A DNA stretch of 64,000 bases from Octopus vulgaris (lineage: Eukaryota). A model generated the notes under the pieces. That model was not told the DNA's origin, searched no databases, and saw nothing but the letters and a program-made list of their open reading frames with translations. This document shows, piece after piece, positions 59,790 to 62,030 of the stretch (the first letter of the stretch is position 1; each line of letters begins with the position of its first letter). Both the position numbers and the translations under genes were made by a program. Where the stretch lies: assembly GCA_951406725.2 (NCBI GenBank), contig OX597835.1, positions 26,164,001 through 26,228,000 on the forward strand. Reading direction: 5' to 3'.

Positions 59790-62030
59790 AAAAAAGAGTG
59801 AAAAAACTACAGAAGGCTTGTGTTATATGGTTAAAGAATATATTTAAATCGTTGTGTTAGAAAAATGTTATAAAGTTTTTTGTATATTAATATTGCTTTG
59901 GGAGAAATAACCGGTTTCATATTTTCTTTTCATATTTCTCAAATTTCTTTACCTATGTCATGTCATGTCTTCGCTATGTTGAAATACGGAGTTACAGATA
60001 GGGGAAGGTAATCAGGGATTTTTTCCGGAGAAACGGAGATAATCAAACATGTTGGGAATGACTAGGTTTTATCAATTTAACATGATTTGGTTTAGAAGGA
60101 ATAGAATGTTACAAGTGGTTAGGTTTTGCTGTATACTTTTTTCAATGAGGTGAGTTTCCTTATTTAAAAATGTTAGAAATGGTTAAGTTTTGGCTTATAT
60201 TTTTTGATGAAGAAGGTTTCCTTATTTAATCTAACTTGTGTTCCATGGCATATTGATAGAATGAAAGGATTACAAATTGTGGTAGCATTTGCTTTGCTCA
60301 TTTTTCAATATGTTCACTAAAGGGTATCATTCTGTATTCTGGGAATGCAATCTGCTGTCGATGCAGAGTGCATCTGCGCCTTAGCGATAATCCTGTGGAT
60401 CCTATGTAGTTTTGGTGGCAACCCGAGCATCTTATGATATAAATCAGGTTTTTTGAAGCACACGTAAAATTAGATTTGATTTTGAATTTTTGTCCTCTTT
60501 GGAGAGGAATTCTGATCCTTCTAGGAGTTTTGGGCATGTTGCGCAATTTGGTCGACTACATTTTTTAAACTTTTGCATCCGTTATTTTAGAAAATAGTTT
60601 TGACTTTGTGAGGATCTTTTTTAGTGATTTTGTTTGTGTGTAGATTTTAATGATTTTATGTATGTCTAAAATTTCCTTTAATTTGAGTCCTTATGTAGCA
60701 TTGGTAAATGTAAATTTTGGGTGATGATGGTGAAAGGTTCTTTGTTTCTGGGGTTGTATGTGGATATGTACGGCAGTATTTTCAGGGAAGGTGTGTTGCA
60801 GTGTTGAACTTTTCTTAAGGTTTCTATGTCGATTTGTGTTGCACGTCAAATTTCCTCCTCTATGAGTTGAACTGGGTAGTGTCTGTCAATTAGGGTGTTT
60901 TTGAGTTCTTTCTGTCTAAAGTCTCTGGTATTTTGTTCTGACACTATTGTTCATATCCTTCCTGCAAGGTTGAAGGGGATGATTGTTTTGGTGTGTCTTG
61001 GGTGGCATGAATCAAAAAGTAGATATTGTTTGGCGTTTTGTAAAATATGTCCGTCTCTATTCTTAGGTTTATTTTTTTTAATTAGTATATCCAAGAATGG
61101 GAGCTCCTTTTGGTTGTACTCCATTGTGACTTGTATTTTGGAGTTAACGCTGTTCAATAGGCTTTTGAATTTCAGGAGTTTATCTGTGTTTGCATTCCAG
61201 AGTATGAAACAGTCGTCTAGGAATCTTTTCCAATTCTCTTTTATGTATTGGGAAAGGGTGTTTCCAAAGGTAGATAAAGATTCCTGGTATATTATTATTT
61301 CCAGGTAGCCCATTGTTAGGTTCGCAATGACTGGTGATGTAGCACCCATAGCAATTCCGGATTTTTGACGGTAAAACGTATTGTCAAACATGAAATGGTT
61401 GTTTCGTAGGATGAATTCAACCGATTTAGTTATGAATTCTTTACTGATCCTTTTTGGTATTTGTTCCGGAAATTGGTCCAGCCAGAACTGAATTGCCTCT
61501 AGCCCATAATTATGAGGTATACTGGTATATAAATTAATTACATCAAATGAAACCATGATTGTTTCTTCCTTGACTTTTTCGGAGGTGATTTAACATATCC
61601 AAGTCATCTCTGATATGGCTATTGATGTGTTTAAGGAAGGGTTTCAGGAGGATCTCCATAGCCTGTGTTTCACAGGCTGGGTCAGCTTTAAAGGGTCGTA
61701 GTTTTAGATCCCCCGGGTTTGGTGTATGCATGTACGTCTTTGGTGATTTTTTTAATGGTTTCATTTATAATCTGGCTTTTGTGGATTTTTGGTAGACCAC
61801 AGAAATGGCTAGGTTTGCATTTAAAGTTTGTTAGAAAGTCAATCTCTTTGGTTGTCAGTTCTTTTCCGTGGGTTTTAATTAGTGAGGACAGAGTTTTCAC
61901 CATTTTTTGCGGGGTGTAGTTTGTGATATTTTCATAATGTTGACTGTCATCAAGCATGGAGATTACCAGATTTCTATAATATAATGTGTCCATTATTATA
62001 ACTGCACTTCCTTTATCTGCTTCCTTAATC
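59790..62030 (-). pseudogene. Degenerate Neptune-type PLE (RT + GIY-YIG, frameshifted)
   Basis: IKEADKGSAVIIMD, FCGLPKIHK, VSFDVINLYTSIP, RQKSGIAMG, WKRFLDDCF, LPFLDI, LIYIIRCSGCHQNYIGST across several frames; homologous to 17934-19176. Confidence 0.9.
59903..59948 (-). ncRNA. Minimal type I hammerhead ribozyme, U3-A8 core variant
   Basis: Minus strand: agaaat-TTGAGAA-atat(gaaaagaaa)atat-GAA-accggt-T-atttct. Same stem III palindrome ACCGGT as the 17258 motif but different stems I and II. Confidence 0.68.

Follow-up and report, generated by a model that had tools for sequence, protein, structure and literature searches.

A first-pass annotation of 64,000 nt of the Octopus vulgaris genome (this whole stretch is here called the window) described two U3-A8 hammerheads in the 3' regions of Neptune elements, one at 17258-17298 and one at 59903-59948. 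Are these true hammerheads, has selection maintained their RNA structure, and what could they do at the end of a retrotransposon? Both motifs are present as described, on the minus strand, and their identity as hammerheads with a U3-A8 pair is upheld by the core letters and by a covariance model built from outside sequences. We consider it quite probable that both are the 3'-repeat (pLTR) hammerhead motif of PLEs, most likely dependent on dimers for its action. The two motifs are referred to below as sites 1 and 2, and their hosts as elements 1 and 2.

Anatomy of the two sites and their host elements

Site 2 (59903..59948, minus strand) is a minimal type I hammerhead motif, recognised from the sequence, from descriptors and from the outside-built covariance model. 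Its stem I has 6 bp, with 59948-59943 pairing to 59908-59903, and leads into a core strand (59942-59936) that reads U3 U4 G5 A6 G7 A8 A9. Stem II consists of 4 pairs, all A-U, closed by a 9 nt loop and followed by G12 A13 A14; its 10.1-11.1 pair is A-U, so that the highly conserved G10.1-C11.1 pair is missing. Helix III is the palindrome ACCGGU (59915-59910) and U17 is 59909, from which hammerhead numbering would place the cut between 59909 and 59908. The type I core letters (U4 G5 A6 N7, A9, G12 A13 A14, A15.1-U16.1 and H17) are exact at this site; the stems are almost wholly A-U, and the host copy is decayed.

Site 1 (17258..17298, minus strand) is a minimal type I hammerhead motif recognised in the same three ways. 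It has a stem I of 5 bp, a core strand at 17293-17287 with U3-A8 and C at base 7, and a stem II of 4 bp with G10.1-C11.1 as its first pair and a loop of 5 nt. The G12-A14 strand is GAA plus one inserted A, located ahead of the palindrome, and the type I core letters are complete save for this A. Helix III is again ACCGGU (17269-17264), with U17 at 17263 and a predicted cut between 17263 and 17262. An alternative parse with an 8-nt palindrome and G17 was rejected because it leaves no stem I pairs beside the core and needs more departures than the single inserted A.

Public runs bear on this extra A. Runs of three organisms (20 runs from 6 studies) contain about 75-80% of element 1's words, and the family is therefore abundant or young; no RNA runs are listed among them, which has no bearing on expression. 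Contigs from four of these runs were aligned to 17166-17640, the covered part excluding the AT-rich stretch that holds the 3' part of site 1. No differences of 4% or more are listed within the covered part of the motif in these contigs, and many are listed farther upstream in the element 1 tail. One contig (run X10) spans the A-run without a gap, with one unlisted mismatch, which gives moderate support to the extra A being genuine in the family and not an assembly error. Among 33 distinct motifs from outside relatives just one carries an extra A, L054. We note that this locus (L054:2714-2758) is a C3-G8 PLE hammerhead whose GAAA strand has an additional A, departing from the norm just as site 1 does.

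Element 1 is a 5'-truncated Neptune-type PLE with an open frame of 417 aa (17934..19187, minus strand) that encodes the C-terminal part of an RT, a CX4CXXC linker and a GIY-YIG endonuclease with CCHH; it matches RVT_1 and GIY-YIG, both below the Pfam cut-offs. Its 3' non-coding region (17165..17933, the pLTR part) ends in a (TA)n tract about 100 nt past the predicted cut. The coding region of element 2 (approximately 60173..62056, minus strand) includes RT, linker and endonuclease and is decayed, with several in-frame stops and frameshifts; its 3' non-coding region (59790..60172) ends in a (TA)n tract about 130 nt past the predicted cut. Both hammerhead motifs are in the sense orientation, with position 3 lying 641 nt (site 1) and 231 nt (site 2) after the ORF stop, and both 3' regions are 26-30% GC. 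Each element is single here, and a tandem partner is absent within the window.

Alignment A1, composed of the query and 26 of 185 homologues, shows conservation of the CCHH residues C328, C331, H350 and H367 and invariance of the linker cysteines C284, C289 and C292; the linker is also legible in decayed element 2. Neptune elements are described as having an RT followed by a C-terminal GIY-YIG with CCHH, and a CX2-5CXXC linker that is common to Nematis and absent in Penelope/Poseidon (PMC8557442). The protein motifs and (TA)n flanks of elements 1 and 2 fit a Neptune-type assignment, the tree comprising unnamed relatives only; the nearest named protein to the element 1 product is from Argonauta (56%).

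The two elements had been called diverged copies. The hosts are both of the Neptune type, but they represent different families and not copies of one: their proteins share 49.5% and 44.4% identity over two aligned pieces, and blastn aligns the DNA over the coding part only (65% over 995 nt), the 3' regions being unalignable, which indicates two families. The scant similarity of the 3' regions that had been noticed by eye is thus borne out.

Several other features were encountered near these elements. Mariner/Tc1-like fragments lie at 15434-16015 and 19174-19653, one of which borders element 1 at about 19174, cutting short the 5' side of this element. A MITE-like element at 62735-63116, just upstream of decayed element 2, has 122-nt terminal inverted repeats (89%) and an Rfam MIR821 match below the gathering score. 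A U2 spliceosomal RNA gene or pseudogene is present at 46985-47185 (minus strand; 151 bits), with an altered 5' end.

Chance likeness and conservation in outside relatives

Could such short motifs arise by chance in AT-rich sequence? The 26-30% GC of the regions and the nearly all A-U stems of site 2 make this worth considering, as does the silence of Rfam, whose hammerhead models give no match at E<=10 at either site and which lists no hammerhead among 150 listed of 444 matches in the whole window. The pattern first proposed as kept at both sites, TTGANAA..GAA(A)ACCGGT-T, has exactly two matches in the window against a shuffle mean of 0.01, a count that is circular in that the pattern was derived from the sites. 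A general descriptor, likewise written after the sites were seen, has no match when either 3' region is shuffled 1000 times and a single one in 60 block-shuffled windows; its six sites in the window all lie in PLE-type 3' ends and in the sense orientation. The covariance model is built from 16 outside relatives and contains no window sequences, and in a search of both window strands its two best matches of 20 are these two sites, scoring 25.6 and 23.3 bits (rough E-values of 0.007 and 0.02). The identical palindrome also occurs at the corresponding position in ten related loci. The outside model, the shuffles and the counts in relatives together effectively refute a chance likeness, which we regard as very improbable, and we are nearly certain that the motifs are hammerhead homologues.

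The relatives are drawn from metagenome contigs and comprise the best 80 of 181 related loci, 60 of which reach the ORF end with a tail of at least 100 nt. A strict descriptor in which positions 3, 8 and 9 are free matches 19 of these 60 tails, compared with 2 of 60 antisense and 0.2 per shuffle of the tails (30 shuffles, maximum 1). Under a looser rule (one best parse per locus, each stem of at least 2 bp) the motif is found in 37 of 60 tails and in 3 of 60 antisense, and this yields the 33 distinct motifs. The 23 tails that fail include 17 without a candidate, 15 of them shorter than 650 nt, and 6 with a stem failure. The 3-8 pair of the 33 distinct motifs is C3-G8 in 27, U3-A8 in 4, and U3-G8 and C3-A8 in one each. 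ACCGGU is the palindrome in 9 of the 37 loci (7 distinct), or ten loci with the dropped L003; these motifs lie 76-276 nt past the stop, are always C3-G8, and have U17 or C17. In L001 the motif occurs twice, before and after the ORF, as in a pLTR arrangement.

Some relatives depart from the simple form. In L009:1782-1828 and L016:2971-3019, both U3-A8, a common 10-nt palindromic helix III is accompanied by differing stems II. Stem I pairs well in L010:1921-1969, L064:2106-2153, L066:1627-1674 and L039:3889-3937 only with one or two extra bases before the core, which resemble the 2a/2b insertions described for saltern hammerheads. Two PLE proteins (P0027 and L081) sit within bacterial metagenome-assembled genomes, where host contamination is the most likely explanation.

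Pairing in stem I can be compared across these loci. When candidates are taken by core and palindrome alone and every parse is kept (58 distinct, wrong and window ones included), stem I positions 1-4 pair in 71% of cases versus 44% with permuted 3' flanks, a level reached in 0 of 5000 permutations, with a control that ignores relatedness. A set of 16 relatives with a 6-nt palindrome was hand-picked after inspection, leaving out duplicates (L033 and L041), a long-stem form (L043) and doubtful parses (L007, L038 and L039); helix III counts in this set are circular. Double changes are seen in all five of its stem I pairs and 81% of cells are paired, a score that 0 of 500 shuffles reach and that compares with 23-54% in slid controls. 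The alignment counts cover stem I, the register of stem II being variable, and MAFFT alignments A2 and A4, with helices III of unequal lengths, misaligned the core and were excluded from the counts. Comparison of the relatives' sequences thus shows that compensatory change has maintained the stems of the motif, as seen in stem I and the 3-8 pair.

The same question can be asked of the window pair itself. Stem I has 5 shared pairs, of which 4 differ on both sides in a core-anchored comparison, and stem II has 4, of which 3 do; stem I pair 4 and stem II pair 2 are identical. The description of the stems as completely different is therefore slightly too strong, although it holds for 7 of 9 shared pairs. 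The annotation had also taken the pair as in-window evidence of selection on RNA structure. Such selection is supported, the strong evidence lying in the 60 outside tails and two sequences being weak evidence on their own; among these relatives neither a lack of covariation nor a general absence of the motif is seen, stem I covarying and the motif being present in 37 of the 60. Selection is shown to have acted on ancestral active families and not necessarily on these two copies, since one of them has several stops and frameshifts.

The two window elements cluster (0.998) in a FastTree protein tree, within a wider group (0.953) in which those members that have DNA carry C3-G8; three or more further branches carry U3-A8 (L009/L016; L017 and L040; L058). 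This distribution suggests that the 3-8 pair has switched repeatedly, in a tree with weak deep support and a midpoint root. A plausible scenario from the midpoint-rooted tree is that the ancestor of the Neptune subgroup had C3-G8 with ACCGGU, and that the lineage leading to the window elements switched to U3-A8.

Proposed dimerisation and cleavage

A lone copy of either motif would be unable to close its palindromic helix III, which lacks a loop, so that two copies, on a tandem transcript or on two transcripts, would have to pair via ACCGGU. This pairing would form a double hammerhead, probably with assistance from the element's own protein, and a cut after U17 could then free element RNA of unit length from precursors made by read-through or in tandem. 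The ACCGGU self-duplex is computed at -8.3 kcal/mol. In a 130-nt context the monomer has a stem I pair probability of 0.01 at both sites; for stem II the value is 0.8 at site 1, against 0.01-0.02 at site 2. The predicted instability of the monomer fold is consistent with a motif that requires a partner or a protein, and equally with a dead one.

It is accordingly worth asking whether the motifs might derive from hammerheads but be catalytically dead or nearly so, the fold being kept for RNA dimerisation or for binding of the RT-endonuclease near the start of reverse transcription. The core insertion at site 1, the missing G10.1-C11.1 at site 2 and the unstable monomer fold would all be compatible with this, and a Poseidon PLE is reported to insert in vitro without need of hammerhead cleavage (PMC11167929). 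The site-1 family is also found in abundance in several runs, one contig from a separate study apparently including the extra A, so the atypical core did not block its spread. A plain dimerisation signal, however, would find the catalytic letters superfluous, yet both sites and 31 of 33 outside motifs retain a 3-8 pair of Watson-Crick type together with G5, A6, A9, G12, A13, A14, A15.1-U16.1 and H17; both U3-A8 and 13a insertions are reported to be tolerated (PMC3088659). We therefore think a dead fold unlikely and favour, with some reservation, families that cleave or once cleaved as dimers, by analogy with the published cases. Measurable cleavage by the 59.9-kb copy itself would be doubtful.

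Other hammerhead motifs in the window and published relatives

Further ranks of the outside-built covariance model within the window also look like real hammerheads. One is associated with a second PLE (53795-59010), which has a 669-aa frame (55036-57045, minus strand) with a CX3CXXC linker and a C-terminal endonuclease. This frame has no Pfam match, shares about 27% identity with the Neptune RT part, and has its nearest named protein in Octopus (58%). At about 57020 the element meets a second, inverted version of its 3'-most 2 kb (97%), and this inverted copy has an extra tail of about 60 nt ahead of the (TA)n. A G3-C8 hammerhead motif lies at its 3' end (54022-54071, minus strand) and in the inverted copy (58728-58777, plus strand), about 970 nt past the second PLE ORF, and 0 of 1000 shuffles of the tail match. 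The motif has a 7-bp stem I, a 5-bp stem II with G10.1-C11.1, a bulged base, a palindromic AAUAUU helix III and U17. GTDB contains one relative of this PLE (32% identical) with a tail of about 390 nt that is without a hammerhead and too short to test for G3-C8, and no relative of either type of PLE, the second included, was found in viral contigs.

A different arrangement is seen at 26228-26918, where a non-coding insertion, either retrozyme-like or derived from a PLE, lies between (TA)n tracts. Its 357-nt unit forms a partial tandem (26479-26561 repeats 26836-26918) together with an inverted 251-nt copy, a PLE-like structure. Both copies of the unit contain a U3-G8 hammerhead motif (26660-26704, plus strand, and 26400-26444, minus strand) with a U-U closing stem II and an 8-nt wobble palindrome.

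None of the four hammerhead-bearing elements in the window has C3-G8; U3-A8 is present twice, and G3-C8 and U3-G8 once each. Counting the Neptune pair as one event, three non-canonical events have a chance of about 0.006 at a rate of 6 in 33, a rate taken from other families in other hosts. It is conceivable, if improbable, that the PLE hammerheads of this genome have systematically left the C3-G8 core (0 of 4, versus 27 of 33 among outside Neptune-type motifs), with the site-1 family apparently U3-A8 plus an insertion. Were the pattern true genome-wide, the host environment would select for attenuated or otherwise tuned ribozymes, with the heavy A-to-I editing of cephalopods as a candidate cause. 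The C3-G8 descriptors and Rfam miss every hammerhead in the window, and PLEs can therefore be wrongly scored as ribozyme-free.

In the printed sources consulted, G3-C8 is found only as a laboratory rescue mutant (PMC11167929, PMC3884650, PMC8495972), and a natural G3-C8 was not found in a literature search that missed most subscription papers. Were the genome-wide pattern borne out, the motif described here would be a natural animal example of this pair; provided that it cleaves and that its family is fixed for it, the range of hammerhead cores occurring naturally in animals would become wider. The Neptune subgroup retains an ACCGGU helix III while the 3-8 pair and the stems vary, and this natural series of one palindrome with varied 3-8 pairs is ready material for assays of dimer cleavage.

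The literature already contains palindromic PLE hammerheads, among them Neptune and U3-A8 forms (PMC4209133, PMC3088659), and our sites are added examples, which would bring probable cephalopod Neptune members to that class. No paper on cephalopod PLE hammerheads was found in the same literature search, and none of the 56 rows in the PDF text of Fig. S3 of PMC4209133 is cephalopod or has ACCGGU; the set of Lünse, Weinberg and Breaker (RNA Biol 14:1499) may already include these cephalopod-type motifs. Small PLE hammerhead variants from these authors are reported to have a short palindromic stem III and to cleave as dimers (PMC6765202), and PMC6765202, PMC3884650, PMC8495972 and a preprint (10.64898/2026.07.22.740005) agree with the published picture of PLE hammerheads.

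The closest comparison is with the minimal palindromic hammerheads (min-HHRs) that Cervera and de la Pena (2014; PMC4209133) describe in PLEs including Neptune, with a U3-A8 variant in Schistosoma Cercyon (about 1,300 hits) and a U3-G8 row in Saccoglossus; these cleave poorly in vitro and have low dimer activity. Both of our sites resemble them in their 3' pLTR location, type I topology, palindromic 15.2-16.2 region, short stem I, lack of an evident loop-loop contact and presumed action as dimers. They differ in that the helix III palindrome is 6 nt (ACCGGU) instead of the usual 4, in the A10.1-U11.1 pair of site 2 and the extra A of site 1, and in having no bulge between 9 and 10.1, an unpaired base that several close relatives, L002, L004 and L005 among them, also lack. 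The natural variants of Perreault et al. (2011; PMC3088659) include U3-A8 forms active in vitro, a U13a insertion and weak stems II, and our sites are like them in U3-A8 covariation, a single base added to the GAAA strand and a weak stem II; the site 1 insertion, unlike theirs, is an A, occurs together with U3-A8, and has an animal retrotransposon as its host. The Poseidon PAc hammerhead of Anolis (PMC11167929) requires the element's protein for cleavage, its 3-8 pairing is shown by partial rescue with C3G/G8C, and insertion is independent of cleavage, with RNA ends at the cut site not seen in that work. Unlike our sites, the Anolis hammerhead has a C3-G8 pair, belongs to the Poseidon clade and overlaps the start of the ORF.
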